This document shows positions 17,142-56,142 of a stretch of DNA of 64,000 nt, in pieces. Below the pieces are notes generated by a model, which had not been told where the DNA came from, made no database searches, and saw only the letters and a program-made list of their open reading frames with translations. The position numbers and the translations under genes were made by a program. How positions within the stretch are numbered: position 1 is the first letter of the stretch; the number at the start of each line of letters is the position of its first letter. Location of the stretch: contig NW_027362761.1 in NCBI RefSeq assembly GCF_046119375.1, forward strand, positions 424,514,001 through 424,578,000, written 5' to 3'. The stretch is from Phyllobates terribilis. Its lineage: Eukaryota.

Positions 17142-17594
17142 TGTTATAGCAGAAGATGGAGTCCCTCAAGTTTAAAGGCCCCATCTATGCTATATAAGTC
17201 TGACAGTTATTTTAGGTAAAAAAACAGCAAGCTGAAATGTTCCTTCTTGTATCAATAGCGTGTCCTTGCTAAAAAGATAACGTGTTCTCCCTGGCCAGAT
17301 GTTTCTTCTTGTAGCAATAATGTGTTCTTGCAAGAAGATAAAATGGCCTTGCTAACCAGATAAGTCTAATTAAATATTTTAAAGCATACAGAAACTAGCT
17401 TTTTTCGCTTGTTCAGCTAAACTGTATAATCGAACCATATATGGAAAATCCGTTTCCTGCCTTCAGGGTGTATATTAGCCCTGTGTTTTGTAATAAAGGT
17501 TAGAGTATGTTTAGACACAAACATCCTGTCCTGTGTCTTCTTCTTTCCGATATCGTAATCCAAAGGATAGAAGACCAAGAATGCAGTGACGACA
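17142..17594 (+). repeat. Putative ERV 5' LTR (left boundary uncertain)
   Basis: TGTTAT...ACGACA termini; AATAAA near 17492 followed by a GT/T-rich tract; directly precedes the PBS. No second LTR is available to confirm it. Confidence 0.5.
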
Positions 17595-17596
17595 GC

Positions 17597-17615
17597 TGGC
17601 GCCTCAAACAGGGAC
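17597..17615 (+). other. ERV primer binding site, degenerate tRNA-Lys(UUU) type
   Basis: TGGCGCCTCAAACAGGGAC versus the canonical Lys3 PBS TGGCGCCCGAACAGGGAC; 2 nt after the LTR-terminal CA. Confidence 0.7.
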
Positions 17616-17956
17616 CTTGAGTTAATCTACCCAGGGGTGCTCGACCGGTCCGAGACGTGGGACGAGTGAAGCTCTCTGTTGGTGATATATACAGCGCTGA
17701 GGTAAGAATAACTGTTATATTCTACCTAATTATATCACTGCATAGAAGAGACTCCCTCACCCCCGAGCGGTCGGCTCCCCAGGTAATTCACAGATTGTTG
17801 TCTGGCTCAGGTCCCTTTGAACCAGTAGAATCCCCTCAGATCAGTCCTGCCTTCTATCCTTTGGAGAATTTAAGAATGAAAGTATGGATCCGATGATTGT
17901 GTTGTGGATGTGTCCCGGGATTGATGTTTTTGGTCTGTTTTTCTGGCTGGCGTATA

Positions 17957-18951
17957 TGTGGCACCCCAGGGGTCTGGTTTCCACAGTAACAAGCAATGTT
18001 ATGTCTGAGAGCAGGTGGGAGGTCTCTTGGTCAGGGATCCTGTGCATGCCACACCTCCTGCCCAGTCCTGGGAGGGGAAGAACTTCCCCTATATAAACCT
18101 AGGGCTGAGGCAGGGTTAGTGAGTAGAGAAGAAGTAGAGACAGAGAAGCAGATATAGGAAAAGAACATCAGGAGCTCTGTGGGAGCAGTACTACAAGGAG
18201 TCAGGGGCTGGCAGCTGCAGAGCTCGCCCTGACTGGAAAGTTATCACCGGACCCGGAGTCCGAGGCTGTGGGGACTAACTCCTATCCAGCAGCAGAAACC
18301 GACCGGCAGGGGATTGCAGGTCCTCTGGCCCAGAAACCCGAAGGCACGGTCACACGCGTGGGACCAGCACCGCCGTCGTGGAGCGGAAGCTACTAGAAGG
18401 CCCCGAGTCACCGGCCATACGGGTGAGCACCACACGGTACACTCAGGGACGTGGGCTACTTATACCCGCCTCTAGCAAGGTAGCCGGAAGAGTATCGTTA
18501 GTTTGGGAGGCCTACAACTCCGCCTGGCCAGGGGAGATCCCATCTGCTCAAGGACTGACGAGGCCCCAATCGCTAGCCAGTACTCCGGGAGGGTCTATCT
18601 TTGTCACCAGTAAAGACCCTGAACTACACCGTACCGTCTCCGAGTGGTTCCTGCTACCCCCATCATCCACGTCGGCTGCCCTGAGGCCATACCCCTCCCG
18701 TTGGGGGTTATACTATCACGCTGCACAATCCTACCACTGGCCTCAGCGGTCTGCCCTGCAGCGGCAGCTCCTTAGCTGTACTCAACGGGTGGCGTAGTCG
18801 TCCAACATCTACCGCTAATACAGCGCCACTTAGTCTGACTCCCTGGGCACGGACCGGATCACCGCCACGAGACTACAACCCTCAAGGGATCCGGCTCCGG
18901 GTAAGCTCCCGCGTGCGCAACGCAGCGCGACACAGGCCCAGGGGCGCGTCA
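17957..18951 (+). repeat. 5' LTR (TATATAAA at 18090, AGTAAA candidate polyA signal at 18609)
   Basis: TGTGGCACCCC...GCGCGTCA; five substitutions seen against the 3' LTR. Confidence 0.95.
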
Positions 18952-18956
18952 ACTTT

Positions 18957-18976
18957 TGGCGTAGTCGGCAGGATTC
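18957..18976 (+). other. Primer binding site, tRNA-Ser (AGA/TGA type)
   Basis: TGGCGTAGTCGGCAGGATTC, 5 nt after the LTR. Confidence 0.88.
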
Positions 18977-19401
18977 CGTGCCCGCAACCACCGGGTACTG
19001 CGTGCCTGGAAAAAAAAAAAAAGAGACTTTTAAACTTACCATCGGTGAAGATTCCCGCCATCCGGCGCCATCTTCAGCCTTCTTCCCGCCATCGGTGAAG
19101 ATTCCCGCCATCCGGCGCCATTTTCAGCCTTCTTCCCGCCTTCCGTGGAGTTTTCCCGCCGTTGGACGCCATCTTGAAGACGCCGCGCGGGAAGAAAAGG
19201 GGCGTGGACTCCGAAAGCGCGCGAGAACTGAAGCCCCGCCTCACGTCCGGACGTTGCGTAAGGTCCTGGAAGGAGCCCAGCAGACGCCGACGTCACAGGA
19301 GCGCGACGGAAGGTCCTCAACCCTGACGATCCACTGCGGAGCCGCGGCCTACGGAAGAGGATCATCGCAAGGTAGGCCACGGTCCACTAGGGGGGAGAAG
19401 G

Positions 19402-20382
19402 ATGTCGGATAAGGAGGAGAGCTTCACCGCTTCAACCCCCGCCAGCGCCACCGCTGTTGCGGTCATGCCTTTCACCATGCCCTATATCCCGGGGGCAGCC
19501 TGGCTACCCCAGTACTCAGGGGAGTCACATACCCTGCATGACTTTAGAGAAAAGCTGGATAGCCTCTTCCAGGTGTACCCCCTCACAGAGGAGCAAAAAG
19601 TGAGCATCCTGGTGGCCCAATTAACCGGGGCAGCCCAAAGGGAGGTAAAGTCCTGGCCACCTGGGGGGAGGACTGTCGCAGGGATACTAACCCGGCTGAG
19701 GGACACCTTTGATACCCGCACCTCAGCCGAGATCAAGCTTAGATTCTACGGGTGCAAACAGCGGGCACATGAGAGTATAAGGGACTATGCCCTGAACCTA
19801 CAAGAGGCCCTGAGAGCCATTAAGCAGACCGACCCTGACGGCGTGGGAGACGAGGACAGGCTGTTGACTGAACAATTTATAGAGGGTTTATATTGCAATG
19901 CCCACCGAACCCAGTTGCGGGCAATGGCCTTACAGGACCCTCATCTGGGATTTGCACAGTTCAAGGACAGAGCCATCCGGGTGCTTCGAGAACCGGCACC
20001 AGGTGGCGTTGTGACCCCCAGACGCCCCACTGCCACTTACCACCAGGAGGCGGCGCCCTTGTCGGCAGGGCCTGTGGGGGCTGATGCGCAGGCTTTGAAC
20101 AATGACCCGGCTCCAGACCTGCACCATCAGGTCCAAGAGCTAGCTAAAAGCGTTGCTGCGCTAACCCGAACTGTGCAGTTTTTACAGGTTTCCACTCCAG
20201 GGAAGATCCAGCTGGCATCCGGACCGGAGGACATCCCGTGGAGTCGACCAAGGAGGACCCCACCGGCCAGAGGAAGACCCAGCGACCGATACAACGAGGA
20301 CGGACGACCCATCTGCCGCCGCTGCAATCAACCCGGACATATGGCAAGGTACTGTCCTTTAAACTGGCACAACCTGGGGTAG
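19402..20382 (+). CDS. gag: Gypsy Gag (capsid plus CCHC nucleocapsid), 326 aa
   Basis: Intact ATG-to-TAG ORF; capsid-like KQRAHESIRDYALNLQEAL; zinc knuckle CRRCNQPGHMARYC. Confidence 0.93.
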   Translation: MSDKEESFTASTPASATAVAVMPFTMPYIPGAAWLPQYSGESHTLHDFREKLDSLFQVYPLTEEQKVSILVAQLTGAAQREVKSWPPGGRTVAGILTRLRDTFDTRTSAEIKLRFYGCKQRAHESIRDYALNLQEALRAIKQTDPDGVGDEDRLLTEQFIEGLYCNAHRTQLRAMALQDPHLGFAQFKDRAIRVLREPAPGGVVTPRRPTATYHQEAAPLSAGPVGADAQALNNDPAPDLHHQVQELAKSVAALTRTVQFLQVSTPGKIQLASGPEDIPWSRPRRTPPARGRPSDRYNEDGRPICRRCNQPGHMARYCPLNWHNLG

Positions 20383-23300
20383 AGGGCCAACCCCCAGGAA
20401 AAAGATCACCAGGCCCATCGAACTGGCGCGACAAATATGTGGGAGGACGTCCAGTCTTACCCGTGGTACTGGATGGCATTCCTATGAGTGCCCTACTGGA
20501 CACCGGGTCACAGGTCACCACCATCCCGTACGTGCTCTTCAAGCAGTACTGGAATGACTCGGATATCACCCGCTACCCTGACGACGACTTGAGTATCATC
20601 GCCAGCAATGGTCAGCCCGTGCCACAGATTGGATTTAAAGAGGTGACCATTAAAATCGGTAGAGTCGAACTGGCAGCACAGGGACTGATCATTGTAGACA
20701 TTGACAAACACGAGAGTCACCCAAAGATAACTCTAGGAACTAATGTAATTGAAAATTGTCTTGCAGAGGTGATTTTCCTTTTACAGCAGGTTGCCAAGAA
20801 CGCCAGCTCCGGCCAGCAGCGAGTGCTCCAGAAAGAGATCCGGGCACTGATGCGACGGCAACAGCTAGAACTCTCCGGTGGTGAGATTGGTAGCGTGCGA
20901 ATGTGTGACCCTTTCCCTATTGCCATGCCCCCGAAAAGTGAAATGATGATTTGGTGCCGGGCAGCTATTGGTCTGAGAGGTAGAGATTACCAGGCAATGG
21001 TAGAACCAGTTTACTCAGACAGTAGGCCCACCATTTTGACAGCACGGGGGGTGGTCAATGTACGCCATGGGAGGGTGCCCGTTCGCATAATAAATATCGG
21101 GAAGAGGGAAGTGTACCTGCCCCGGTATGCCACGCTAGCCAAATTGTATACCATCAATCAAGATTCCATACAGTCCGTAGAACCCTTGCCTCCATCTTCC
21201 CCGGAGGAAGGTAACGGCTCTCAGAAAACAATGGAGGACTGGTGTCAGCAACTACATTTGGGTACTGACTCCACTCCCTCACACCAGAAACAGGGAGTCT
21301 ATCGGGTGGTTCAAGAGTACGAGAGAGTGTTTAGTAAACACCCGTTAGACTTCGGGCGAGTCAAGGGGGTAGAACACCACATCCCCACGGGAGACCATCC
21401 TCCCATAAAAGAGAGGTATCGACCCGTACCCCCTGCACACTACCAACACGCCAAGGGGATGCTTAGAGACATGAAGGAGGCTGGGGTGATCAGGGATAGC
21501 TGTAGCCCCTGGGCAGCTCCACTAGTCTTAGTCAAAAAGAAAGACAACACCATGAGGATGTGTGTAGATTACCGGAGAATCAACCGTATCACACACAAGG
21601 ATGCGTACCCCTTACCAAGGATAGAGGAGTCTTTGGCTGCTTTAAGATCTGCTAACTTCTTCTCTACCTTGGATCTCACTAGTGGGTACTGGCAGGTTCC
21701 TGTAGCAGAGGCGGACCGGGAGAAGACCGCATTCACCACCCCGATGGGACTTAGCGAGTTTACCTGCATGCCGTTCGGACTCTGCAACGCACCAGGAACC
21801 TTCCAACGATTAATGGAGTGCTGTCTGGGCCACAGAAACTTCGAGACGGTCCTGCTGTACCTGGACGATGTCATCGTATATTCCAAGACGTATGAGGACC
21901 ACCTGAAACACCTGGCGGAAGTGTTCGAAGCTCTGGCAAGCTACGGCCTAAAGGTGAAACCCTCCAAGTGTCACCTCCTGAAACCAAAGGTGCAGTACCT
22001 GGGACACGTGGTGAGCGCTGATGGAGTGGCTCCCGACCCTGATAAGATCACCGCAATTAAGGAATGGCCAAGTCCCTCCAGTGTAAAGGAAGTGCGGCAG
22101 TTCCTCGGGTTGGTAGGCTATTACCGCAGATTCATCCCCGGTTTCACCAAAAAGGCAGCTCCTATGCAGGACCTCCTGATAGGCCAGTCCCGGAAGGCCA
22201 AGAACCAGAAGCCGCCCTTCAAATGGGAGAAGTTAGAAGAAGAGTCCTTCCGCCAGCTGAAGATGGCCCTCACGGGGGATGAAATCCTGGCGTACCCTGA
22301 TTACAGCCAGCCCTTTATCCTCTACACCGACGCAAGTAACATCGGGCTAGGAGCCGTACTGTCCCAGATCCAGCAGGGGAAAGAACGAGTAATCGCTTAC
22401 GCTAGCCGAAAACTGCGACCCACCGAAAGAAACCCTGAGAATTACAGCTCATTTAAGCTAGAGTTCCTGGCAGTGGTGTGGGCAGTCACCGAACGCTTTA
22501 AGCACTACCTCGCTTCTTCCCGGTTCACCGTGTACACGGATAACAACCCGTTGACACACCTGGACACGGCAAGACTCGGTGCCCTAGAGCAGAGATGGAT
22601 GGCCCGTCTGTCCAACTACGAGTTCACAATCAAATACCGGGCAGGACGCTCCAATACCAACGCGGACGCCCTGTCCAGGATGCCAAACCTACCGGACGAA
22701 GGAGAAGATCCAGAGGGACTGGAAGAAGTCGAACTCCCCGCGTTCCACCGTCGTGGGACTATCCAGTATTCCCATCGGGTAAGGAGTAAGCAAGCCGCTA
22801 CGTTTAACCCCTTGCCTCACTACAACTGGGAGGAAACGCAAGACAGTGACCCTGCCGTCCGGCTGGTGAAGGAGATGCTGACTCGGCCAGAGGCTCGCCT
22901 TGACCCAGACGCTCCGGAGGAAGCCAAGCAACTGTGGGCTGAGAAGAGTCGACTGTTCCTTTACAAGGGGAAGTTGTGCCGCAGAATGGTTAACTCCCGG
23001 ACGCATGAACTAATCTGGCAAGTAGTGGTGCCACGGAGAGACGCAGCCATGGTGATGGAAGCATACCACGACGGGGCTGGACACTTCGGATGGAAGAAGC
23101 TGGAGTTCCTGCTGCGTGGGCGGTTCCACTGGGTAGGCATGAGGGGAACCATCGAGAGGTGGTGCAGAGACTGTGGCCCGTGCAACCTAAGAAGGAAGGA
23201 CCGTGCCAGCCAGAAGACTCCCCTGCAGTCCATCGTCACCCGGCAGCCGTTGGAACTGGTAGCCTTGGATCATGTAAAACTGACCCCAAGCAGAAGTGGC

Positions 23301-24494
23301 TACGTCTACGCGTTAACCATTGTGGATCATTACTCCCGGTTCTTGGTTGTCGTCCCCGTTAAGGACTTAACGGCTCAAACAGCAGCTGGAGCCTTCCAGC
23401 AGCACTTCTGCCGTCCACACGGATACCCGGACCAAGTGCTGACGGACCAGGGACCTGCCTTTGAAGCGGAGATCTTCCAAGAATTCTGCAATCTGTATGG
23501 CTGCCGGAAGATAAGGACGACACCCTATCATCCGCAAACTAATGGACTTTGTGAGAAAATGAACCAGGTGGTAATGGATCTCCTGAAAACGTTGCCCCTG
23601 GAAGAACGCAGTTTGTGGCCTGAGAAGCTGCCCGATCTGGTGGACCTATACAACCACATCCCGGTAGGTTCCACCAACTGTACCCCGGCTTACCTAATGA
23701 GGGCGATACCTGGTAAGTTACCTGTTGACCTGGAAATGGGAGTCCTGACACCCGAGGACACTTCACCGGAAACAGACTGGGACACAGAGAGGCAGCAGCA
23801 GTACCGGAAAGTACAAGAGAGCGTGGAGCGAAGTCTCTGTCTCGCTAGGGAAAGACAAGAGAAAAATTACAACCAGTATGCTCCCGCTGTTCCCCTGGTA
23901 CCCGGAGAGCAGGTCTTGAAGAGGAAGAGACGGCTCCACAAGTTGGACGACCAGTGGGAGAAGGACCCGTACACCGTACTGCCCTCAAGCCACGACAACC
24001 CAAAGGTTTGTACCATCAGTAAAGACGGAGGGGAAACCACAGCCATTGTATCCCGGGATCACCTGAAGAAGTGTCCCGAACAGCTACGGAACCCAGAAGG
24101 AGAGCAAGAAGACCCTCGACCCGTAGAGGAAAGGGAAGATATGGTTAGTACTGTGCTCGGAGACTTCCCTCGATCCTGGACTCAAGTCAATGGTGCAGTT
24201 GTGGTACCCGTCCTCACGTTCCTCCAACCAGCATCCCAAGTGCCTACGGAGCAACAGGTAGAGCTGGAAGAGCAGCCGGTCCAGGAGGCAGCAGACTCCA
24301 CACAAGCAGAACAGGAGGATCAACCCTCTGCTCATAGTGAGCCTGCCATACCCCTAGTGAGCCAAAGAGCCCGTAGACAGCTGCCCAGTTTATCCTTGAT
24401 AGCTCCTACACCCTGTAGTTCAGGGCCAGACAGTCAGCTCCGTAGGTCCACTAGGGCCACTAGAGGCCAGTTACCCGCACGTTGGAGGATTTGA
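20238..24494 (+). CDS. pol: Gypsy Pol (PR-RT-RNaseH-IN), -1 frame to gag; probably entered by frameshift near 20364
   Basis: LLDTGS protease, YLDD at 21858-21869, RNase H LYTDAS/VYTDNNPL, IN zinc-binding H...H...CGPC, DDE core, C-terminal GPY/F-like module; no chromodomain; no internal stop. Confidence 0.95.
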   Translation: MESTKEDPTGQRKTQRPIQRGRTTHLPPLQSTRTYGKVLSFKLAQPGVEGQPPGKRSPGPSNWRDKYVGGRPVLPVVLDGIPMSALLDTGSQVTTIPYVLFKQYWNDSDITRYPDDDLSIIASNGQPVPQIGFKEVTIKIGRVELAAQGLIIVDIDKHESHPKITLGTNVIENCLAEVIFLLQQVAKNASSGQQRVLQKEIRALMRRQQLELSGGEIGSVRMCDPFPIAMPPKSEMMIWCRAAIGLRGRDYQAMVEPVYSDSRPTILTARGVVNVRHGRVPVRIINIGKREVYLPRYATLAKLYTINQDSIQSVEPLPPSSPEEGNGSQKTMEDWCQQLHLGTDSTPSHQKQGVYRVVQEYERVFSKHPLDFGRVKGVEHHIPTGDHPPIKERYRPVPPAHYQHAKGMLRDMKEAGVIRDSCSPWAAPLVLVKKKDNTMRMCVDYRRINRITHKDAYPLPRIEESLAALRSANFFSTLDLTSGYWQVPVAEADREKTAFTTPMGLSEFTCMPFGLCNAPGTFQRLMECCLGHRNFETVLLYLDDVIVYSKTYEDHLKHLAEVFEALASYGLKVKPSKCHLLKPKVQYLGHVVSADGVAPDPDKITAIKEWPSPSSVKEVRQFLGLVGYYRRFIPGFTKKAAPMQDLLIGQSRKAKNQKPPFKWEKLEEESFRQLKMALTGDEILAYPDYSQPFILYTDASNIGLGAVLSQIQQGKERVIAYASRKLRPTERNPENYSSFKLEFLAVVWAVTERFKHYLASSRFTVYTDNNPLTHLDTARLGALEQRWMARLSNYEFTIKYRAGRSNTNADALSRMPNLPDEGEDPEGLEEVELPAFHRRGTIQYSHRVRSKQAATFNPLPHYNWEETQDSDPAVRLVKEMLTRPEARLDPDAPEEAKQLWAEKSRLFLYKGKLCRRMVNSRTHELIWQVVVPRRDAAMVMEAYHDGAGHFGWKKLEFLLRGRFHWVGMRGTIERWCRDCGPCNLRRKDRASQKTPLQSIVTRQPLELVALDHVKLTPSRSGYVYALTIVDHYSRFLVVVPVKDLTAQTAAGAFQQHFCRPHGYPDQVLTDQGPAFEAEIFQEFCNLYGCRKIRTTPYHPQTNGLCEKMNQVVMDLLKTLPLEERSLWPEKLPDLVDLYNHIPVGSTNCTPAYLMRAIPGKLPVDLEMGVLTPEDTSPETDWDTERQQQYRKVQESVERSLCLARERQEKNYNQYAPAVPLVPGEQVLKRKRRLHKLDDQWEKDPYTVLPSSHDNPKVCTISKDGGETTAIVSRDHLKKCPEQLRNPEGEQEDPRPVEEREDMVSTVLGDFPRSWTQVNGAVVVPVLTFLQPASQVPTEQQVELEEQPVQEAADSTQAEQEDQPSAHSEPAIPLVSQRARRQLPSLSLIAPTPCSSGPDSQLRRSTRATRGQLPARWRI
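20358..20416 (+). promoter_or_regulatory. -1 programmed ribosomal frameshift signal (T TTA AAC plus predicted pseudoknot)
   Basis: Slippery heptamer in the correct Gag phase, 8-nt spacer, stem CCTGGGG/CCCCAGG, loop GGGCC able to pair with downstream GGCCC. Confidence 0.75.
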
Positions 24495-24847
24495 AGTGTT
24501 TAAATTGTTTTATTTGTGGTCACCTGTCTGTTACTTGTAAATAATTATGTGTTTCTAGTTATTTTTAGGAGTCCTTGGTGGATTTACCGGGAATCCTTGT
24601 ACAATTGGTTGGAGCGTAACCCAGGAATGGACTAAAAGACTGTTAAGGACTCGGGGCAGGACAGACCCCTACCTGGTTACGTCTCCCTGTTTTGGTGAAA
24701 TGGACACCTTTGTTTTCTTCAAAGACTGCACCCGGTTGCGGACACGCCGTAACCATCTTTATGTGTTTTTCCTATTGTATTATTATTGTTTATACCTTGT
24801 TATGTTTTTCTAAAAATATGTTTAGTCCCGGAGTACTAAATTTCACT

Positions 24848-24855
24848 AGGGGGAA
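24848..24855 (+). other. Polypurine tract
   Basis: AGGGGGAA directly before the 3' LTR TG. Confidence 0.8.
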
Positions 24856-25850
24856 TGTGGCACCCCAGGGGTCTGGTTTCCACAGTAACAAGCAATGTTA
24901 TGTCTGAGAGCAGGTGGGAGGTCTCTTGGTCAGGGATCCTGTGCATGCCACACCTCCTGCCCAGTCCTGGGAGGGGAAGAACTTCCCCTATATAAACCTA
25001 GGGCTGAGGCAGGGTTAGTGAGTAGAGAAGAAGTAGAGACAGAGAAGCAGATATAGGAAAAGAACATCAGGAGCTCTGTGGGAGCAGTACTACAAGGAGT
25101 CAGGGGCTGGCAGCTGCAGAGCTCGCCCTGACTGGAAAGTTATCACCGGACCCGGAGTCCGAGGCTGTGGGGACTAACTCCTATCTAGCAGCAGAAACCG
25201 ACCGGCAGGGGATTGCAGGTCCTCTGGCCCAGAAACCCGAAGGCACGGTCACACGCGTGGGACCAGCACCGCCGTCGTGGAGCGGAAGCTACTAGAAGGC
25301 CCCGAGTCACCGGCCATACGGGTGAGCACCACACGGTACACTCAGGGACGTGGGCTACTTATACCCGGCTCTAGCAAGGTAGCCGGAAGAGTATCGTTAG
25401 TTTGGGAGGCCTACAACTCCGCCTGGCCAGGGGAGATCCCATCTGCTCAAGGACTGACCAGGCCCCAATCGCTAGCCAGTACTCCGGGAGGGTCTATCTT
25501 TGTCACCAGTAAAGACCCTGAACTACACCGTACCGTCTCCGAGTGGTTCCTGCTACCCCCATCATCCACGTCGGCTGCCCTGAGGCCATACCCCTCCCGT
25601 TGGGGGTTATACTATCACGCTGCACAATCCTACCACCGGCCTCAGCGGTCTGCCCTGCAGCGGCAGCTCCTTAGCTGTACTCAACGGGTGGCGTAGTCGT
25701 CCAACATCTACCGCTAATACAGCGCCACTTAGTCTGACTCCCTGGGCACAGACCGGATCACCGCCACGAGACTACAACCCTCAAGGGATCCGGCTCCGGG
25801 TAAGCTCCCGCGTGCGCAACGCAGCGCGACACAGGCCCAGGGGCGCGTCA
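24856..25850 (+). repeat. 3' LTR (995 bp)
   Basis: Direct repeat of 17957-18951, followed by the TATA TSD. Confidence 0.95.
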
Positions 25851-25966
25851 TATAAGTCCTAGAGAGGCTAGTAGTGGAATGGTTCAGAAACCTTTGTGGC
25901 CCATTGTCTAAGTGACCATTGTCTAAGTGACTGAGGAGTCTCTTCTAGGTGAGGAGAACCGAAAAA

Positions 25967-27269
25967 ATGGGGAACGAAAATGCCAAGGAAGGCATTATAG
26001 CCAAAGACTTAGTAGTACGCAGAGAAGGGAAACAAAATATTGTGTAAAGCGGGAATGAATGAGAATGGAGAGATGAATGGAGAGATGAATGGAGAGAAAT
26101 GGAAATACTTCTTTAACTCCTATCATGGATGGCTGAAAGATAAGGGTCTGTTAGGGACAGTAGATGTATGGATGAATGCATGCGCTTATTTTGAAGGAAA
26201 GATTGAAGAACTAGGAGACGGACGTTACAGACTGACAAAAACCGGAATGATAGATTTTCCTCCCTGTCCGCTCCCGACGTCACCCCCACCCCAGTATCAG
26301 AATTCCCAGGAACCTAAATGTTGGGTTTGCCCCAGATGTGGACAGCAGAACCCCTTGCCAGTAGACATCTGTGTGGCATGTGGAGGACCGAGACCCCACC
26401 CAGCTAGTCTATTCCCAATGAGGACGGTAGTTGTGCCAGGAGCATCAGCAGCAGCAGGAGGGGGGGATGCAGTGGTTCCAGGTCAGGAAGCTCGTACAAT
26501 GTTAATGTATAGACCATGGAGTCCTTCAGAGCAGTTGGCACTGATCTCCCAGCTGCCAGACCCATCCCAGTCCCCTATGGGTTTCGCTAGAATGATCACC
26601 ACCATACAGGATACGTACCATGCCACTAGAATAGATCTGCAGGGGGTAATTAAGGGAAAATTGGCAGATGAAGCCCGCTATGATAGGTTGATAGATGAGA
26701 CAAAAAAACAGTATGCCAATAGGACCGGACCCGTAGATGCAGAATCTAATGATGCAGCAGCTGGAGTCCTATTCGCAGCAGTGTTGGTAAAAGCATGTCA
26801 AGACAGGCAAGCAGAAAAGAAAGTTACACTAGAAGATAGAGTGCAAGGGAAGGAGGAAGATCCTAAGGATTATTTCTATGCACTAAAGAAAACCTGGTCA
26901 GAAATGGGGTTCAACCCCGGGAATAAGACTAGTGAGAGGGTATTAGCAAGTGCTTTCATGAATGGACTAAAGAAAGAGATTGCAGAGAAGGTAAAAGCAA
27001 GTAGACCGGACTGGAGATCAGTGAAGGCAGAAGATTTAGCTAGAATAGCTCAGGGGGCACAACATGACATAGCGCAGGCAAAAAGAGCTGCCAGAATACA
27101 TATAGTAGAGACGACCCCCAGAAACAACAGAGGCGGAGGACAGACTGAAGGAGGAGGACAGAAACTGTGTTACGGATGTAAAAAGCCAGGACATTTTAGA
27201 AAGAACTGTAGGACCAAATGCTCAGAGTACGGGTCCTCCAGCCGACCAAACAACGCCCCCATAGGATGA
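25967..27269 (+). pseudogene. gag: ERV gag (Met-Gly start, PPxY, RanBP2-type zinc finger, MHR, CCHC) with one frameshift near 26035
   Basis: ATG GGG AAC at 25967 (MGNENAKEG...) stops after 26 codons; removing one A from the CAAAAT run joins it to ORF 26040..27269. QGKEEDPKDYF (MHR); CYGCKKPGHFRKNC. Confidence 0.85.
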
Positions 27270-27270
27270 G

Positions 27271-30200
27271 GGTAGCTTGCACATGAACCCCCTCATCTCC
27301 TTACCCCCAACTCCCAGTTGTATAGTGCAGGTGAACCTACCAGGGGGACATGAAATCGATTTCCAAGTAGATACGGGGGCCGACAATTCAGTAATTACGC
27401 AAGGTGATTGGCCATACACTGACACTGATTTTTCACGTCATGTCATTGCCACCCCCTTCAATTCCCTGTCTGTCCTGCTCCCTGTCACTAAAAGAATTCA
27501 AGGAGCTACTGTACATAGCCAGCTCATGGTATCGCCCCGAGGCCAATGTAATCTATTGGGAAATGATGTGTTGTCCCAATTACAAGCACATATTGAGTAT
27601 CATCCCGATGGCACTGTGACCATGACCCCAGGTTTAAAACCAAGTACCCTTTGCAAAATTATGTCACTAGATATTGCCACCATAGAAGAGACAAATGAGT
27701 TTCCCCTGATATTAGAGCAGGCTGTGCCACATGATTTTTGGGCCTCAGACAAAACAGATGTTGGTAGGTTAAGAGTTCAACCAGTGATGGTGAAATTAAA
27801 ACCAGGAGCAATCTTACCTCAACAGAGGCAGTATCCCCTTAGCTCGGCTCAGGAGAATGCCATAGCCCAGCAAGTCCAAAAATTACTACAGAGAGGAGTC
27901 CTAGTCAAAACCCAGTCCCCTTGCAACACTCCCCTGTTCCCAGTAAAGAAAAAGAGCGTGCCAGGACAACCAGCCGCATATAGAATGGTCCATGACCTCC
28001 GGTTGGTTAACAAAGCCACAGAACTTCTAACACCAGTTGTGCCCAACCCTCATACTCTCCTGTCACAGATACCTTCTAACTCTCTTTGTTTTTCAGTGGT
28101 CGATTTGGCAAATGCATTTTTCAGTGTACCATTACATCCTGACTGCCAGTACTTGTTTGCTTTCACATTCCAGGGCAGTCAATATACATGGACAGTGTTG
28201 CCACAGGGTGCCCAGAATTCACCCACAATGTACACTGCAAGTCTGCAGGAAATACTGGAGGGATGGTCTGAACCACATATCGTTGTTTTGCAATATGTCG
28301 ATGACCTGCTCATTTGTGCCCCCTCCAGGAAACAATGTCATAGTGCAACTATATCACTTATGTTGTTTCTCTATCGCGCTGGCTGCAAGGCATCGAAAGA
28401 TAAGCTTCAGTTTTGTAAATCTTCAGTCACCTTTTTGGGACACTGCATTACACCAGGAGCTCGTCATTTGACAAATGCACGTAAACAAGCAGTACAGGCA
28501 TTCACCGTCCCCATTAATGTTGCAGCCCTCAGAACTTTTCTTGGACTTGTTTCCTATTGCAGACAGTGGATTCATGCCATCTCTGTTTTAATGCAGCCCC
28601 TCTATGACTGTCTTACTCCAACACCTTTTGTACTAACACCAGAGGCACAAGACTGTTTTTATTCTCTCAAAAAACGTATTTTGGCCGCTCCAGCTTTGGG
28701 TACCCCTAATTATGAGCTCCCATTTACTCTGTACCTTCATGAACAAGCTGGACATGCAGCAGGAATTTTAACTCAAACACACGGTGATAATAAGAGACCT
28801 GTTGCCTACTTTAGTGGCAGATTAGATGCGGTAGCCAGAGGTGCACCATCCTGCGTACGTGCTCTGCATGCTGTTGGACTATTACTCCATAAATCCGCAG
28901 ACATTGTTCTAGATCATCCGCTCACCGTGCTAACACCTCATGATGTCTATACTATATTGAATCAAGTGCAACCCGCTCACCTCTCAGCAGCACGTCATCT
29001 TAGGTTACAATGTGCACTGTTAATGCCTCCCAATGTTTCTTTACAGAGGTGTACTACCCTGAATCCAGCAACTTTGTTACCTCTCTCGGATCTAAAGGAG
29101 GGGTCAGGTACTGTGCTTTATAAGGAAGATCCAAGAGAGGAAGTTCCTCATGACTGTGTACAAATGATGGCACAAGAAACGGCAGGTTTACCTACTGTAT
29201 TTGAACATGAATTACAAAATGCAGATTTTGAATTTTTTGTAGATGGATCCCGTCATCAGGACGATTCAGGTACCTTCCATACTGGATATGCAGTTGTCTC
29301 CCTCAATGCAGTAATCAAGGCAGAACCAATGCTCCCACACCAATCGGCTCAAGAAGCTGAACTTAGGGCCCTAACCGAGGCCTGTAAACTAGCGGAAGGT
29401 AGTATTGTTAACATTTACACAGATTCTAGGTACGCATTCGGTATATCGCATGATTTTGGTCCCATATGGAAGTCAAGAGGTTTCCTGACGGCAGCAGGAC
29501 ACCCCATTAAGAATTCTGATGCGGTCCAGCAGTTAATTGATGCGCTACAACTACCCAAACAAGTAGCTGTCATAAAGGTAAGAGCACATACCAGACGCAC
29601 CGACCAGGTAAGCAGAGGTAACGCGATGGCAGATGCAGCGGCAAAAACAGCAGCCTGTAAGCCGCAACAAGGGTCAACAGTACGTCAGTTAAGTGCCCCT
29701 AAAAACCCCTTTGTGTCGGAGGACATCTTATCCCAAATGCAGGCTCAGGCTCAAAAGGAGGAGGTTGATAAGTGGTTACAGGAAGGTGCATGCCTGAATG
29801 AAGCAAATGGGGTATGGGGGAAAGGGACACGATGATGCCTTCCAAGGGCACTGTACCCAGCAGCTGCCCAGATACTACATGGGCCGACACACCAATCTAA
29901 AACGGGTGTGATGAGTGTGATGCAGAAACATTGGGTGGCACCAGGATTCTCCACCTGTATTGAAAACCTGGTACAAGGGTGCATGACATGTGCTACACAT
30001 AATCAGGGTAGAGTAGTTAAAACACCACCCAAACACACCCCCCGGCCCCTCTATCCATTCCAGAGACTGCAAATTGATTATATTCAGCTGCCAAAGTCAG
30101 GATCATGGGAATATGTGTTGGTCTGTATTGATTTGTTCTCAGGATGGCCAGAGGCTTTCCCGATTGCCAAAGCCATGGCTGCGGCAACCGCAAAGAAACT

Positions 30201-30742
30201 GCTTGCGGAGGTGGTCTGCAGGTATGGGGTACCAGAGGTAATTGAGAGTGACAGAGGTACACACTTCACAGGTGAAATAATGAATGAAGTCATGTCAGCT
30301 CTAGGAATTCAACAAGCATTCCACACCCCATATCACCCACAAAGTAGTGGTAAACTGGAAAGACTGAATGGGACATTGAAATTAAAAATTCAGAAAGCCA
30401 TGGCTGAGACAGGAAAACCATGGCCGGACTGTTTACCACTTGCTCTGTTTTCAGTAAGATACACGCCCAATAGAAAGACTGGACTCTCCCCATATGAGAT
30501 ATTGTTTGGCAACGTACCCAGCCTAGGGTGTTTCTATCCGCAAGCATTAGAAATGAACAACCATGTGCTAAGTTCCTACGTGAGGGCTTTACACAAAAAG
30601 ATTAAGCAAGTACATGATAATGTCTTCAGTTCTCTTCCAGATCCAGATCAAGACTCTAGCAGCCATACGCTGCAACCTGGAGACTGGGTGGTTATAAAAA
30701 GACACGTGAGGAAAAGCCTAGATCCACGGTTTGACGGACCCT
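27271..30742 (+). pseudogene. pol: ERV pro-pol (PR, RT, RNaseH, IN) with an in-frame TGA at 29833-29835, truncated in the IN C-terminus
   Basis: VDTGAD and NLLGND protease; LPQGAQNSP and YVDD (28294-28305); FFVDGS/IYTDSRY RNase H; HGPTH...CMTC; QIDY...SDRG...ERLNG. ORFs 27277..29835 and 29908..30972 share one frame. Confidence 0.9.
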
Positions 30743-31562
30743 CCAAAGATTTTCTATTGTGTCAGGTCTCTTCCTTCAATACGGTGCAGTCGTTCTTTCC
30801 CCTTTGCAGAAAAAAGTATGATGGTTGGGACAGTGTTCTTGGGGTTGTACTCATCCTTCTTCTTCCTCCAAACATGGCGAGTGGAGTTGATACCAAAAGT
30901 TCTATTTTGGTCTCATCTGACCACATGACATTCTTCCATGCCTACTGTGGATCGCCCAGATGTCATTGGTGAACTTTAAACGGGCCTGGACATGTGCTGG
31001 TGTAAACAGGGGGACCATGGGTGTCCTGCAGGATTTTAATCCATGGCGGCGGAGTGTGTTACTAACTGTAATGTTTTATACTTGGGTCCCAGCTCATTTC
31101 AGGTCATTGACCAGGTCCTCCCATGTAGCTCTGTGCTGATTCCTGACCTTTCTCAGAATCATCCTTACCCCATGAGGCGAGATCTTGCATAGAGCCCCAG
31201 ATCGAGGAAGATTGACAGTCATCTTGTGTTTCTTACATTTTCTAATAATTGTGAAAACAGTTGTTGCCTTCTCAACAAGCTGCTTGCCTATTGTCCTGTA
31301 GCCCACCCCAGCCTTGTGCAGGTCTACAATTTTGTCCCTGGTGTCCTTAGACAGCTGTTTGGTCTTGGCCATGGTGGAGGGGTTGAAGTGTGATTGATTG
31401 AGCGTGTGGACACTTGTCTTTTATACAGGTAACGAGTAGAAAAGAGGTGCAATTAATACAGGTAATGAGTGCAGAGTAGGAGGGCTTCTTAAAGAAAAAC
31501 TAAGGTCTGGGAGAGTCATAATTCTTGCTGGTTGGTAGGTGATCAAATACTTATTTCATGCA
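30743..31562 (-). pseudogene. Tc1-like transposase remnant (family 1), internally deleted and lacking its 3' end
   Basis: [22 protein letters not shown]...RSGA paired-like HTH (31372-31094), later WSDETK-like and IENLW-like pieces, and an inner DR GAAATAAGTATTTGATC. Confidence 0.85.
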
Positions 31563-51165: not shown

Positions 51166-52469
51166 TGTAGCGCCCCGAGGACTCGGTCGCTACAGAGGTA
51201 TTACACCTCATCCAGAGGTGTGATATCCCACTCCCGGGTAAGGATGGGGTATGGATCAAGGCTCAGTAGGCTGCATACAGCACACACACCCCATTTCCGA
51301 GGGACAGCTCAACGGTGCTCCCACTAGACAGAAGTGCAGGCACGACAGCATCTGTCCCTGGCTGGAGTGGGGAGGGGGGTGGAATACCCAGTGCTGTAGG
51401 GGCAGATAGGGGTTGGTTCCTGAGCATAGGAAGGAGCCCATTGGTTGCTAGTCACCTGGGCTCATGGTCAGAGGGAGGTATAAAAGGTGGGCACCATCTT
51501 AGCTCTGGGGGAAAGAAGAAGAAGTTCAGTGTGTGAGGAGAAGTGGAGAAGGCAGGGAGCAGGGCTGCTGCATGGGCTCTGCTCCCTGGGCAGGCATAGC
51601 ACAGAGGCCGGGGCCAGAGAGAGAGAGAGAGAGGAGAAGGAACAGTGGAAAGGAAAAGGGAACAAGACCAGAACAGAAGTAACAAGTGAAACAGAAAGGC
51701 TCAGGAACGAGAAGGAAGAGAGAACCCTAAGGACCCAGGAGATTGCGGGTGACGGGTTGGCAGAACAGGGTACCGGATCCCAAACTGGTGGAAGCAAATC
51801 ATCTTCAGCCAAGAACCGGAGGTCGTGACCAGCCCTTGGTGCGACCCCTCGCTACACCTTGCTAGGAAGGCATACCATAGCGGGTCAGGTACGTGGGCAT
51901 GTAGCCCCCCCTAAGAGAAGGCCCGCGGGAGCTGGACATAAGCTTGGTCACTGGTGGGGCACGAGCCAGAGAAAGGACGGAAAGGAGCTTTGAGACATAC
52001 TCCAGAAAGACCTGGGAGGTGACCGAGTCCCTTGCCTGGTGGACGCAGCACGGCTTGGGTGGTCACTGCTTCGCGAGAGTGACCTGGAGAATACAAACTG
52101 TGAGTAAAGGACATTGGATTGCAACACATTGTCTGTGACTTCTTGCTCCTCCAGCACTATTGGTATTGGGGCTATCTGCGCTATCACCCCCACCATCCAC
52201 GACACTGCCCTGGGGCTGTACTCTTCCCGTGGGGAGTCACACTACCTAAGCTGCATACACCATCTGCCCCAGCGGTCTGCCTTGCAGCGGCGGTCCGCAC
52301 TGACCGCATTCCACGGGTGGCGTAGTCGGACTATTATCTCACTAATAAGACTGCCACTGAATTGACCACCCTGGGCATGGACCGGGTCAGCGCCACGGAA
52401 ACTACAACCCTCAGCGATCCGGCTCCGGGTATTCCCCGCACGCACAACACAGGCCCAGGTGGCGCGTCA
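51166..52469 (+). repeat. Family B 5' LTR (TATAAAA at 51479, AGTAAA at 52103)
   Basis: Direct repeat with 53975-54675 outside a 603-bp block. Confidence 0.9.
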
Positions 52470-52473
52470 ACTT

Positions 52474-52498
52474 CGGCGTAGTCGGCAGGATTCAAACC
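52474..52498 (+). other. Primer binding site, tRNA-Ser (AGA/TGA type)
   Basis: CGGCGTAGTCGGCAGGATTCAAACC, 23 of 25 matches to the remembered tRNA-Ser complement TGGCGTAGTCGGCAGGATTCGAACC. Confidence 0.82.
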
Positions 52499-52902
52499 AA
52501 CCCGTCACCAGCAGGTATTGCGTGCCTGAAAAAGACTTTTGTACTTACCTGTGGTGAAGTTTCCCGTCGTCTGGAGTCGCTTCCCGCCATCGGACGCCAT
52601 CTTGGGTCGTTTCCCGCCATCTTCTGCCGTCTTCCCGCCATCGGACGCCATCTTCGGGACGCCGCACGGGAAGAAGAGGGGCGTGGACGCCGAAAGCGCG
52701 CGAGATCCGAAGCTCCGCCCCACGCACTGATGCTGCGTAAGGTCCTGGAAGGGAGAGGGAGCGACGCTGACGTCACAGGAGCGCGACGCAAGGTCCTCAA
52801 CCCCGACGATCGACTGCGGAGCCGCGGCCTACGGAGGAAGATCATCGCAAGGTAGGCCACGGTCCACCGGGGGGGAGGAAGACATCGGGAACGGAGAGCA
52901 AG

Positions 52903-53409
52903 ATGGCGGACCGGCAGCAGACTAAGCTGCCCAGCATCGGCAGTGCCCCAGTCGTCGCCGGCCCCGACCAGCGCCAGGAGAAGACGCGTGACGCAGGAGT
53001 GGTCGCGAGAGCAGGTAAGAGGAGTCTCCCTGTCCCGGACGCTGCCAGCGTCAGCCTGCTCCCGGGCCCCCTGGTGGAGCCGCCGATCCCGGGCGCTGCA
53101 GACACCGATCTGCTTCAGACCCCGCAACAAGGCCTGCAGCCGACCCCTCCAGCCCTGGGCACCGCCACCACCAGCCCGCGCCCAGGCCCAAAGTCGCACC
53201 CTCTGACCCCGGGTGTCATCAACAGCGGCCTTCTCCAGACCCCGCCGCAAGGCCTACTGCACAAGGGTGCCAAGGGACAGTACGCCCTCCACGTTCACCG
53301 GCTCACGGAGGAGAAGCTGCAGTACCACCAGTACGATGAAAGCCAAGAGGACCCGGACGTGTCTGAAGACTACCCTCAGGAGGGAGCTCAAGGAGGACAT
53401 AGCTATTAA
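52903..53409 (+). CDS. Orphan 168-aa ORF inside the non-autonomous element (coding status unproven)
   Basis: ATG in AAGATGG context, about 20 nt after the position of the family A gag start; Pro/Gln-rich with a repeated LLQTPxQGL; no recognised domain. Confidence 0.3.
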   Translation: MADRQQTKLPSIGSAPVVAGPDQRQEKTRDAGVVARAGKRSLPVPDAASVSLLPGPLVEPPIPGAADTDLLQTPQQGLQPTPPALGTATTSPRPGPKSHPLTPGVINSGLLQTPPQGLLHKGAKGQYALHVHRLTEEKLQYHQYDESQEDPDVSEDYPQEGAQGGHSY

Positions 53410-53974
53410 AAGAAAGTAGCGTGAGTAAGGAACTGTACAAAGTTACCCGTCAGGGTACAAGGACTGTTTTCCTTTTGAACTGTTAATAAGTGTGGGCCCC
53501 TTTGGGACAGCTAAAAGACTGTTACCCGTTTCCAAGATACCCCCTTCCTTACCTGGCTGAGGACTGAGAACAGCCATCCCCTTCCCTACCTGGCCGAGGA
53601 CTGGGAGCGGCCATCCTGTAAATAGTTGCGCTTCTTAAAGCGCCCCCTACTGGTTTTATAATGAAACTGCACCTCTACCTCAAGCACCTTTGAGACCAGT
53701 GAATACCTGGTTGCCAGTTGCACAGCGGCCAGAAGTCAAGAATGTATTTTTGAAGAATGTTTTACTTGCAAAAGTTTTATAATGTGTCTTATGGTAAAAG
53801 AGTTCCGGAAGTAATAACCAAAAGTGTTTCATCAAAGTGTTTCCCATGAAGGGAATTGTACAAGTGTGTCTGTTTCCTGATGTAAGCAGTTATTGAAAAA
53901 GTTTTTGCATACCCATTTGAATCGTTTTTGCTCTGTTCCAGCCCGAGGACGTGCTGTGCTTTACCAGGGGGGAA

Positions 53975-54675
53975 TGTAGCGCCCCGAGGACTCGGTCGCT
54001 ACAGAGGTATTACATCTCATCCAGAGGTGTGATATCCCACTCCCGGGTAAGGATGGGGTATGGATCAAGGCTCAGTAGGCTGCATACAGCACACACACCC
54101 CATTTCCGAGGGACAGCTCAACGGTGCTCCCACTAGACAGAAGTGCAGGCACGACAGCATCTGTCCCTGGCTGGAGTGGGGAGGGGGGTGGAATACCCAG
54201 TGCTGTAGGGGCAGATAGGGGTTGGTTCCTGAGCATAGGAAGGAGCCCATTGGTTGCTAGTCACCTGGGCTCATGGTCAGAGGGAGGTATAAAAGGTGGG
54301 CACCATCTTAGCTCTGGGGGAAAGAAGAAGAACGTTGTCTGTGACTTCTTGCTCCTCCGGCACTATTGGTATTGGGGCTATCTGCACTATCACCCCCACC
54401 ATCCACGACACTGCCCTGGGGCTGTACTCTTCCCGTGGGGAGTCACACTACCTAAGCTGCATACACCATCTGCCCCAGCGGTCTGCCTTGCAGCGGCGGT
54501 CCGCACTGACCGCATTCCACAGGTGGCGTAGTCGGACTATTATCTCACTAATAAGACTGCCACTGAATTGACCACCCTGGGCACGGACCGGGTCAGCGCC
54601 ACGGAAATTACAACCCTCAGCGATCCGGCTCCGGGTATTCCCCGCACGCACAACACAGGCCCAGGGGGCGCGTCA
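53975..54675 (+). repeat. Family B 3' LTR lacking 603 bp
   Basis: Identical offset to the 5' LTR for 358 nt, then jumps to the equivalent of 52127. Confidence 0.9.
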
Positions 54676-55099
54676 ATGGCATGGCATTATGCTGCTTGTA
54701 TAGATGGGCCAGCATATGCAGCATTGATTTTCATTGTGTTCGACTATCGCACATCAGACAGCGCTAAGGCAGATGATTCTGCGTTGATGCCGTGCTTCAC
54801 CACGTAAGAACAGTTAAAATGCCCAGACACTTTCATGGGCATGGCCACCAACCTTCTTCAACTAGAAAAATTCATTTTTGTGCATCATGCAGGAACGTGG
54901 GTTACTTTGCACAAACATAGTGCATTATTGCTGCTCAAAACATAGATCTAGTGAGCTGTGAAAGACGTATCTCTGTCTGTAATCACTGCTCCAGGTATTG
55001 ACAGCGCAGTGCATTTTAGGGCTTAATACCAAATTTATTGAGTGAACCACATTCTTTTACACATGAGAGCACACAGTGGACACCTCTTTATGCGATAAA

Positions 55100-56142
55100 T
55101 GTGGCACCCCAGGGGTATGGTTGCCACAGTAATAGGAATATTACGTCTGAGAGCAAGTGGGAGGTTTATCTGGTCAGGAGCCCTTAAACAAGCAACACCT
55201 TCCTGCCCAGACCTGGGAGGGGAGGAATCTGCCCTTATAAACTGGGTCTGGGGCGGGATTAGACAGTCAGAGTCAGAGCCTGGAGAGGGAAAGTTACAGC
55301 AGGAGCTCTGTAGGAGCTAGGAGCAGAAGACCTGGGGCTGGAAGCTAAGCAGAGATATAGCTCGCCCTGGCAGAAGAATCTGATAACCGGACACCGGAGT
55401 CCGAGGCTGTGGGGACTGATATCCACCCAGCAGCAGAAACCAGCCGGCAGGGGATTCCAGGTCCTCTGGCCATAGAAGCCCGGAGGCTCAGTCACAAGGA
55501 AGGGACCAGCACCGCCATCCAGGAACGGAGGCTAACAGAAGGCCCCAAGTCACCAGCCATACGGGTGAGCACCACACGGTATACTCAGGGACCTGGGCTA
55601 CTTCTACCCACTTACAGCAAGGTAGCCAGAAAGAGTGCAGATAGACGGGGAGGCCTACAACTCCACCTGGCCAGGGGAACTCCTGTTTGCTCGCAGACTG
55701 ACCAGGCCCCTTATGCTAGCCAGTACTCCCGGGAGGGTCTGCCTTGATATCACCAGTAAAGACCCTGAACTGCACTGCAAAGACTCTGAGTCGTTCCTGC
55801 TCATCGCCGCACCAGCACTACTAGTGCTGGGACGCCCGCGCACCATCACTCCCATCATCCACATTCCCTGCCCTGAGGCCATACTCCTCCCGTGGGGAGT
55901 TATCCCATCCTTTGCTGCGCACACCACACCAGCCTCAGCGGACTGCCTCGCAGTGGCGGTACACCCTGACCGCAATCCACGGGTGGCGTAGTCGGACAAT
56001 TAACCTAAAACCCCTAAAAGACCGCCATTGGCCTGACCACCCTGAGCCATGGGACCGGGTCGCCGCCACGGAGACTACAACCCCCAGAGACCCGGCTCCG
56101 GGTATCCCACACACGCCCACACTAGGCCCAGGGGGCGAGTCA
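55100..56142 (+). mobile_element. Solo LTR, Gypsy family C (diverged relative of family A)
   Basis: TGTGGCACCCCAGGGG...GGCCCAGGGGGCGAGTCA, TAAA TSD on both sides; shares blocks with the family A LTR (CACCACACGGTA, AGTAAAGACCCTGAACT). Confidence 0.9.

Follow-up and report, generated by a model that had tools for sequence, protein, structure and literature searches.

A RanBP2-type zinc finger between matrix and capsid of a frog endogenous retrovirus Gag is kept by purifying selection

Results

The retroviral copy in the window

The window, a stretch of 64,000 nucleotides of contig NW_027362761.1 of Phyllobates terribilis, contains a truncated copy of an endogenous retrovirus (ERV), all parts of which lie on the plus strand. 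The 5′ LTR (17142..17594) is 92.8% identical to the LTR of another copy of the family, L031, and is directly followed by a primer-binding site (17597..17614) that occupies the same place in other copies and that we take to be tRNA-Lys-like. A likely splice donor is present in the leader at 17700..17706, where the letters form a donor context and where loose contig ends carry leader letters up to the site. In runs X1 and X6, which come from two studies and whose RNA status is guessed or unknown, such ends joined 17701 to 29046 and 30640; both positions are AG acceptors with pyrimidine tracts, one of them inside pol. They hint weakly that other members of the family give rise to spliced transcripts; a look-up for expression listed no RNA data set that contains the sequence.

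The leader is interrupted at 17957..25850 by a Gypsy-type LTR retrotransposon in plus orientation, which is not a part of the ERV. The insertion is delimited by a pair of 996-bp LTRs, 99.5% identical, and a 4-bp target duplication; it contains an RT/RNase H/integrase ORF at 20148-24494 with an open pol frame of 1448 codons, and comparison with other copies showed that the ERV sequence resumes on its far side. The Gypsy element is young, and related LTRs are found at about 52,000-56,100 of the window.

Downstream of the insertion, the gag start and matrix region occupy 25967..26258. The zinc finger described below does not share the frame of the ATG at 25967; that frame is open for only 26 codons, a frameshift lying about 26 codons past the ATG. 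A putative p12-like peptide of about 52 residues (26259..26414) is bounded by two aromatic/Pro candidate protease sites and is followed by the capsid domain (26415..27110, the end being approximate), which, judged by the model of the related protein P0001, starts with a Pro and a predicted beta-hairpin. A second frameshift lies after the nucleocapsid knuckle, and the Gag C-terminus of the window copy is unlike that of other copies. Pro-pol extends downstream of a TAG from 27265 to 30742, and its frame is interrupted by a stop codon at 29833. Near 30742 the element is cut off: the integrase end, the env remnant and the 3′ LTR are missing, and no second LTR of the family was found within the 64-kb window. 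With its frameshifts, pol stop, Gypsy insertion and 3′ truncation the window copy is dead. Just beyond the break point, a minus-strand ORF (31094-31420) may represent the start of a Tc1-type transposase.

A RanBP2-type finger in Gag

The open gag frame at 26016-27269 holds a PPxY late-domain motif (26286-26297), a RanBP2-type C4 zinc finger and a single CCHC nucleocapsid knuckle (27168-27209), the last recognized both by Pfam and in the sequence. The finger core, from Trp to the fourth Cys, lies at 26322-26381, and its signature begins 12 codons downstream of the PPxY. The frame thus reads as the first-pass annotation had described it, with an exact RanBP2-type signature near a PPxY and in addition to the CCHC knuckle. 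That annotation had taken the ORF as Gag, which is right for the frame of the finger and does not hold for the whole of gag, as the ATG at 25967 lies in another frame.

The pattern W-x-C-x2-C-x3-N-x6-C-x2-C matched once among 127,996 six-frame positions of the window, at the Gag finger itself, and was obtained in 0 of 200,000 shuffles of the Gag ORF, which rules out a chance origin. A host exon read in frame with viral DNA was also ruled out, because the finger sits within an uninterrupted gag frame in many copies. The RanBP2-type signature is given as W-x-C-x(2,4)-C-x3-N-x6-C-x2-C (PMC12383448), and the window finger fits it exactly. Among Pfam families zf-RanBP (PF00641) was the best match, as the earlier reading would have it; the score of the window, 19.6 bits (E 5.6e-4) when the ORF was searched and 24.7 bits (E 1.3e-5) for a piece of 57 aa, stays under the curated cut-off of 27, which five relatives pass (P0002, P0005, P0025, P0026 and P0081; 27.5-34.9 bits).

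A single-sequence AlphaFold2 model of the window finger had a mean pLDDT of 86, with only 2 of 5 models above 80. The model superposed on the fingers of Nup153, RanBP2, TRABID and MDM2 with an rmsd of 0.4-0.8 Å over 25-28 columns, none of the matches having an E below 0.001. In a VIA structure comparison the top 18 rows were all RanBP2-type fingers (Z 2.8-4.8), and a search of the ESM Atlas gave no usable match. The finger is therefore predicted to have the two-hairpin zinc-ribbon fold of the RanBP2 type, like Nup153 and NZF fingers. One finger residue is a Pro that is private to the window copy; of 30 loci, the 29 others all have Thr at this place.

Position of the finger within Gag

P0001 is an NCBI protein of Phyllobates terribilis that one genomic copy encodes letter for letter. 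Its structural model shows, in order, a helical matrix (residues 11-88), a linker (86-118) that is rich in Pro and disordered, the finger and then the capsid, which opens with a beta-hairpin and has the MLV capsid 6hwx as its best solved match (E 8e-6). A Pro downstream of the finger and a later Asp are invariant in all 12 finger-bearing Gags compared, a pair that we assume to form the salt bridge of the mature capsid N-terminus. Both residues fit such an N-terminus, and the predicted hairpin supports a protease cut downstream of the finger; the upstream aromatic/Pro site is guessed from the letters. About 11 residues separate the end of the finger from the capsid Pro, and the finger forms the C-terminal half of a PPxY-bearing insert between matrix and capsid (MA-CA insert). 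Its placing in a p12-like slot beside a late domain, proposed from the window alone, was borne out, and a search for a p12 Pfam match in the window Gag found none. The finger and the PPxY vary independently: P0002, P0009 and P0078 have a finger without an upstream PPxY, and P0100 has a PPxY without a finger.

In the structure search with the Gag model, row 2 (E 8e-8), ahead of lentiviral Gags, was V5NX06, named 'ICP4c', of chelonid alphaherpesvirus 5; on the basis of the models this protein may hold a captured Gag-like domain.

The repeat family in the genome

A genome search scored 150 of 5150 candidates, all of the scored ones being 93-100% identical over the region, which gives at least 150 matches in the genome. 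Equating 150 matches with 150 insertions was rejected in part, as all four tested copies on unplaced contigs have one common flank; many matches thus probably repeat a single amplified locus. These copies (L039, L041, L043 and L045, on contigs C111, C131 and C74 of G000) have 5′ flanks that are 99.8-99.9% identical; the same flank-sharing unit is probably also present on C135, C196, C274 and C334, and on contigs of this kind the matches are spaced about 100-150 kb apart. The pattern points to amplification of one ERV-bearing unit into a very large tandem array, or to an artefact of the assembly.

Without interruption a copy measures about 6.2-6.8 kb and consists of LTR, gag, TAG, pro-pol, env remnant and LTR, with a Gag of about 440 aa. 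The TAG is present at the gag/pro-pol junction in 25 of 26 long loci, and pol is in frame with gag in unbroken copies; this arrangement, with an amber stop between two genes of one frame, is that of the frog epsilon-like (RMERV) clade. Env is cut to about 134 codons in all 24 of these 26 loci that have the region in view, in both subfamilies. The env remnant (L031:7150-7551 and 23 other long loci) begins like a signal peptide, contains a CxxC and ends like a membrane anchor. Of 24 copies, 4 keep it open throughout, and the others are interrupted at scattered positions. A search for env with pieces of three PF00429-annotated proteins gave matches to Pol instead. Between RNase H and integrase, in-frame stops in pol fall on two neighbouring codons in two copy groups, comprising the window copy (29833), L031 and L033, and L039-L045; other copies are open there.

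The LTR pairs are 95.7-99.6% identical, with a median of 98.5 (23 pairs, four of which represent one locus). An LTR pair of 98.0% identity in Dendrobates has been dated to about 2 My (PMC12690878). Set against this dated pair, the LTR identities indicate a young family with insertions of the order of a few million years old.

Selection on the finger

Pairwise pN/pS was calculated for 36 of 65 copies, after removal of 29 near-identical rows, from pairs that are not independent. It was 0.04 for the finger, 0.14 for the capsid, 0.32 for the matrix and 0.54 and 0.36 for the linkers. Variants shared by two or more copies were counted in 33 copies, after three more near-identical rows had been removed. 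The 26 finger codons contained 0 non-synonymous and 7 synonymous shared variants (p 3e-5 under neutrality), and singletons were 7:4 non-synonymous to synonymous (shared vs singleton, p 0.013). For the flanks the shared counts were 13:13 (finger vs flanks, p 0.027), and for the remainder of gag they were 84:133 (finger vs remainder, p 0.047). The net divergence of the finger between the two subfamilies (11 and 14 copies) was 0.236 for pS and 0.000 for pN. The finger is under purifying selection and, by that test, functional; its extra constraint over the rest of gag is borderline, and windows within the capsid are likewise free of shared non-synonymous change.

The PPxY showed no shared amino-acid change across the 33 copies, and Gly2 was kept in 33 of 33. 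Of the 30 loci in a second set, 27 retained the four Cys intact and four had a stop just past the finger; such Cys losses and stops are as expected from decay after insertion. The constraint on the finger likely acted after env was lost, because both subfamilies are without a full env. Loss of env cannot separate early from late roles of the finger, as Gly2 and PPxY are kept too and budding was possibly selected.

Distribution among frogs and lineage of the ERV

A HMMER search with P0001 gave 77 matches, of which 12 were finger-bearing Gags, with identities of 27-46% (the query itself aside). The finger is located at the same Gag position in nine frog genera, and the hosts named were Phyllobates, Ranitomeya, Anomaloglossus, Rhinoderma, Ascaphus, Engystomops, Lithobates and Bufo, together with the cane-toad virus RMERV. 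UniProt automatically labels an Engystomops Gag as RanBP2-type domain-containing. In 12 Gags chosen for having the finger, with a mean column identity of 27%, nine columns are invariant and six of these are finger residues, two others being the Pro and the Asp downstream of the finger. The Trp, Asn and four Cys are thus conserved in related ERVs, which together with the pN/pS of 0.04 upholds the module first read from a single copy. The Gag finger is real, functional by selection and widespread among frogs.

A quick, midpoint-rooted tree of Gag capsid-nucleocapsid with long branches (50 of 53 rows, the label P0009 being wrong) placed all 13 finger rows in one clade of 31 rows (SH-aLRT 98). Within this clade the MA-CA region could be scored in 15 rows: 13 have a canonical finger, one a decayed finger and one another C4 spacing. 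None of the 19 rows outside the clade has the finger, eight of them having long N-termini. The simplest reading is that the finger was gained once at the base of the frog clade and later lost in places. It is dispensable in some lineages, because a Xenopus laevis Gag-Pol has a PPxY and no finger and a Pelobates Gag has a decayed finger, along with four PPxY repeats. The Pelobates case and two Gags that have, at the place of the finger, C4 motifs without the Trp and Asn are represented by P0003, P0017 and P0039/P0083. Finger Gags may also occur outside frogs; word-index searches gave only 2 and 3 proteins.

Two further kinds of domain were seen next to Gag sequences. A Macro domain (Pfam E about 1e-25) precedes the capsid in Gags of RMERV and Ascaphus (P0006, P0012, P0084 and P0023 together), and follows the finger in three of those four. 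Macro ORFs have been described in fish epsilon-like ERVs (PMC4977317). A TRIM RING/B-box/coiled-coil is fused to Gag capsid-nucleocapsid in three gene models (Anomaloglossus, Dendropsophus and one more) and AKAP95 to Gag in one (P0015, P0016, P0050 and P0054 together). In P0015 the Gag portion has 88% identity with a plain Gag from its own species; these fusions may be annotation artefacts or young fusions.

In a quick RT tree of 47 rows, for which 45 of the 120 listed matches were used, the window RT fell into a clade of 18 rows (SH-aLRT 97) composed of 16 named frog rows, the window and one other row. It is sister to an element of Ranitomeya; WEHV1 lies outside the clade, and the frog clade is apart from fish epsilonretroviruses and bird gamma-like ERVs. 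The Gag of RMERV (AWS20966.1 / A0A2U9K508) is homologous to that of the window family (E 1e-19) and was the best BFVD match. The RMERV-like clade is described as anuran-specific (PMC12690878). From these sequence comparisons the ERV appears to belong to the known RMERV-like, epsilon-like frog clade of class I ERVs, the link to RMERV coming from Gag. An undescribed amphibian retrovirus lineage, as the first-pass annotation had suggested, is not what the window contains: its Gag has a relative in the Gag of RMERV, a described virus with the same finger, and its RT falls among frog elements.

Ligand signatures of the finger

RanBP2-type fingers are known as binders of ubiquitin, RNA or Ran, and the residues of these ligand surfaces were compared in 17 Gag rows, which include four near-duplicate pairs. 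The hydrophobic pair after the second Cys of nucleoporin fingers contacts Ran; the Gag rows have Gly there in 12 of 17. Ubiquitin-binding NZF fingers carry Thr-Phe/Tyr after the second Cys (PMC11372445), and this pair is present in 0 of the 17 rows. Fingers that bind ssRNA have an aromatic residue at position 17 and Arg at 19/20 (PMC6384913). When these positions were mapped onto the residues after Asn through an alignment with RBM10, Pro followed the Asn in the window, as it did in 12 of 17 rows, an aromatic residue followed it in 2 of 17 (one cluster), and the Arg-Arg pair was absent in all 17. The net charge of the finger ranges from -3 to +2. The earlier remark that the finger is without both the TF pair and the usual RNA-binding residues holds across all these rows. 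Nucleoporin fingers occur in arrays of 4-8, and Ran-binding fingers are preceded by an extension of about 10 residues that includes a Phe/Leu (bioRxiv 10.1101/2021.10.26.465790); the window Gag has a single finger, near whose N-terminus only the Tyr of PPxY is found, the spacing from PPxY to finger being 12-31 residues across rows.

Fingers of nucleoporins, RBM5/10, TRABID and archaeal eL40 score alike against the Gag finger. Naming one donor gene failed because these scores tie; the capture of a host module, as first proposed, is plausible.

Discussion

A proposed module on a p12-like peptide

We tentatively regard the finger as an accessory module for protein binding that would serve core trafficking or integration, carried on a p12-like peptide which is likely freed beside the capsid; we hold this to be a possible reading, at somewhat less than an even chance. 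The finger would likely bind zinc, and the viral protease would likely excise it together with the PPxY as one small p12-like protein. It would then probably act as a protein-docking adaptor that helps the viral core to reach or hold a nuclear target. The early step, core trafficking or integration, is suggested by analogy with gammaretroviral p12 and by the position of the finger. A protein ligand is favoured because the ubiquitin and RNA signatures are absent and the charge is near neutral. The constraint on the finger persists in a family whose env is cut to about 134 codons. Because its surface residues vary from lineage to lineage, the finger may not have one partner that is conserved throughout.

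A fuller version of this reading is rather unlikely as a whole. It states that a captured RanBP2-type finger replaced a disordered p12 tether throughout the clade, from tailed frogs to ranids; that its ligand is of a class other than ubiquitin, RNA and Ran; that through it incoming cores dock on a nuclear or chromatin protein of the frog and that it remained essential after env loss; and that the MA-CA region is a cassette for host modules such as finger and Macro.

The main rival to the adaptor reading is a helper in budding, in which finger and PPxY together would recruit ESCRT- or NEDD4-pathway proteins without a TF site, in the manner of Vps36 NZF-N and Vps28. We consider it unlikely, though it has several observations on its side: the PPxY lies 12-31 residues upstream of the finger in 12 of 17 rows, Gly2 and PPxY are both kept in the window family, the one Gag with a decayed finger (Pelobates) repeats the PPxY four times, and the weak matches include the Vps36 NZF-N/Vps28 structure. 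That match (Z 2.7) is weaker than many others, however, and nearness to PPxY says little, as every MA-CA insert of gamma/epsilon-type Gags adjoins one; moreover, finger and PPxY were lost independently, and TF/TY is absent in the 17 rows (motif: PMC11372445). A purely structural role, the finger being a folded spacer or a Gag-Gag or capsid contact that stabilizes the core without a host ligand, would agree with the invariance across lineages of structural residues only, with varying surface positions, and with the about 11 residues between finger end and capsid Pro. It is quite improbable, since within the window family the surface residues are frozen too (0 shared changes in 26 codons), suggesting a defined binding surface, and the finger-capsid distance is hundreds of residues longer in Macro-bearing Gags.

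Two other roles have still less in their favour. Non-canonical RNA selection, or a counter-defence in which the finger, alone or with Macro, neutralizes a restriction factor, is very doubtful: RBM10 and RBM5 fingers are among the matches and a Macro domain follows the finger in three Gags, but an aromatic residue after Asn is found in 2 of 17 rows, Arg-Arg is absent and the charge is neutral to acidic (criteria from PMC6384913), Gag already has a CCHC knuckle, and most finger Gags are without Macro. Least probable of all is mimicry of the nuclear pore, with the finger binding Ran-GDP like Nup153/Nup358 and so aiding nuclear entry. Fingers of Nup153 and RanBP2 are the top sequence and Foldseek rows, with up to 42% identity; their scores nevertheless equal those of other finger classes, Gly replaces the nucleoporin hydrophobic pair in 12 of 17 rows, the second-knuckle residues common with Nup153 are not conserved across frogs, and nucleoporin fingers stand in arrays of 4-8 (bioRxiv 10.1101/2021.10.26.465790).

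The docking module that we prefer would, if real, provide a new ligand for a well-studied finger family. A folded module of 26 residues, frozen by selection and present clade-wide, offers a small and testable handle on the step from core to chromatin. To our knowledge, this route is largely unknown for class I retroviruses other than MLV. The surprise is moderate, as a preprint has already recorded the presence of such a finger in a frog Gag, and the copy in the window belongs, as a dead one, to a repeat family.

Comparison with known systems

The bare presence of a RanBP2-type finger in a frog Gag is already known, as is the lineage. AnERV9 of Gastrophryne carolinensis has two RanBP2-type fingers in Gag and an epsilon-like Pol (bioRxiv 10.1101/2024.07.05.601823, section 3.4.1). 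The first-pass annotation had tied the novelty of the Gag finger to its being unreported in epsilon-like Gags, and with AnERV9 that novelty is reduced. The sections of the preprint consulted give two sentences to the fingers, and in these nothing on position, distribution, selection or function. This was the only report on a finger or Macro domain in Gag found in the literature searched; in a word search of the text available, 'RanBP' was absent from PMC12690878, PMC4131045 and PMC13709493. No account of clade-wide conservation, position, selection or function of the Gag finger came up in the papers searched. By description, AnERV9 resembles the window family in being a frog ERV with an epsilon-like Pol, one CCHC knuckle and RanBP2-type Gag fingers; it differs in that its fingers number two, a myristoylation signal is not predicted and its env is complete. 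RMERV has the same finger, 14 residues after the PPxY. Its Gag is 873 aa long, with Macro between finger and capsid, whereas that of the window family has about 440 aa and env is deleted.

The cellular RanBP2-type fingers, namely NZF, ZRANB2/RBM5/FUS, Nup153/Nup358 and MDM2, are like the Gag finger in signature and predicted fold. They differ in that the window Gag finger is without ubiquitin or RNA ligand residues and is present as a single copy in a viral polyprotein.

The closest functional parallel is MLV p12, likewise a short PPxY-bearing MA-CA insert, which is bounded by aromatic/Pro-type sites (PMC3492146) similar to the candidate sites of the frog Gag and the C-terminal part of which tethers cores to chromatin (PMC6021111; PMC3492146). 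The C-terminal residues of MLV p12 are basic (PMC3492146) and the protein is unstructured (PMC2277328), whereas the frog finger has a net charge of 0 in the window family, and half of the frog insert is a C4 finger with a predicted fold. The mechanism of MLV p12 is thus not directly copied, being basic and unstructured there and neutral to acidic and, by prediction, folded in the frog Gag; the frog insert may work like p12 but is not a p12.
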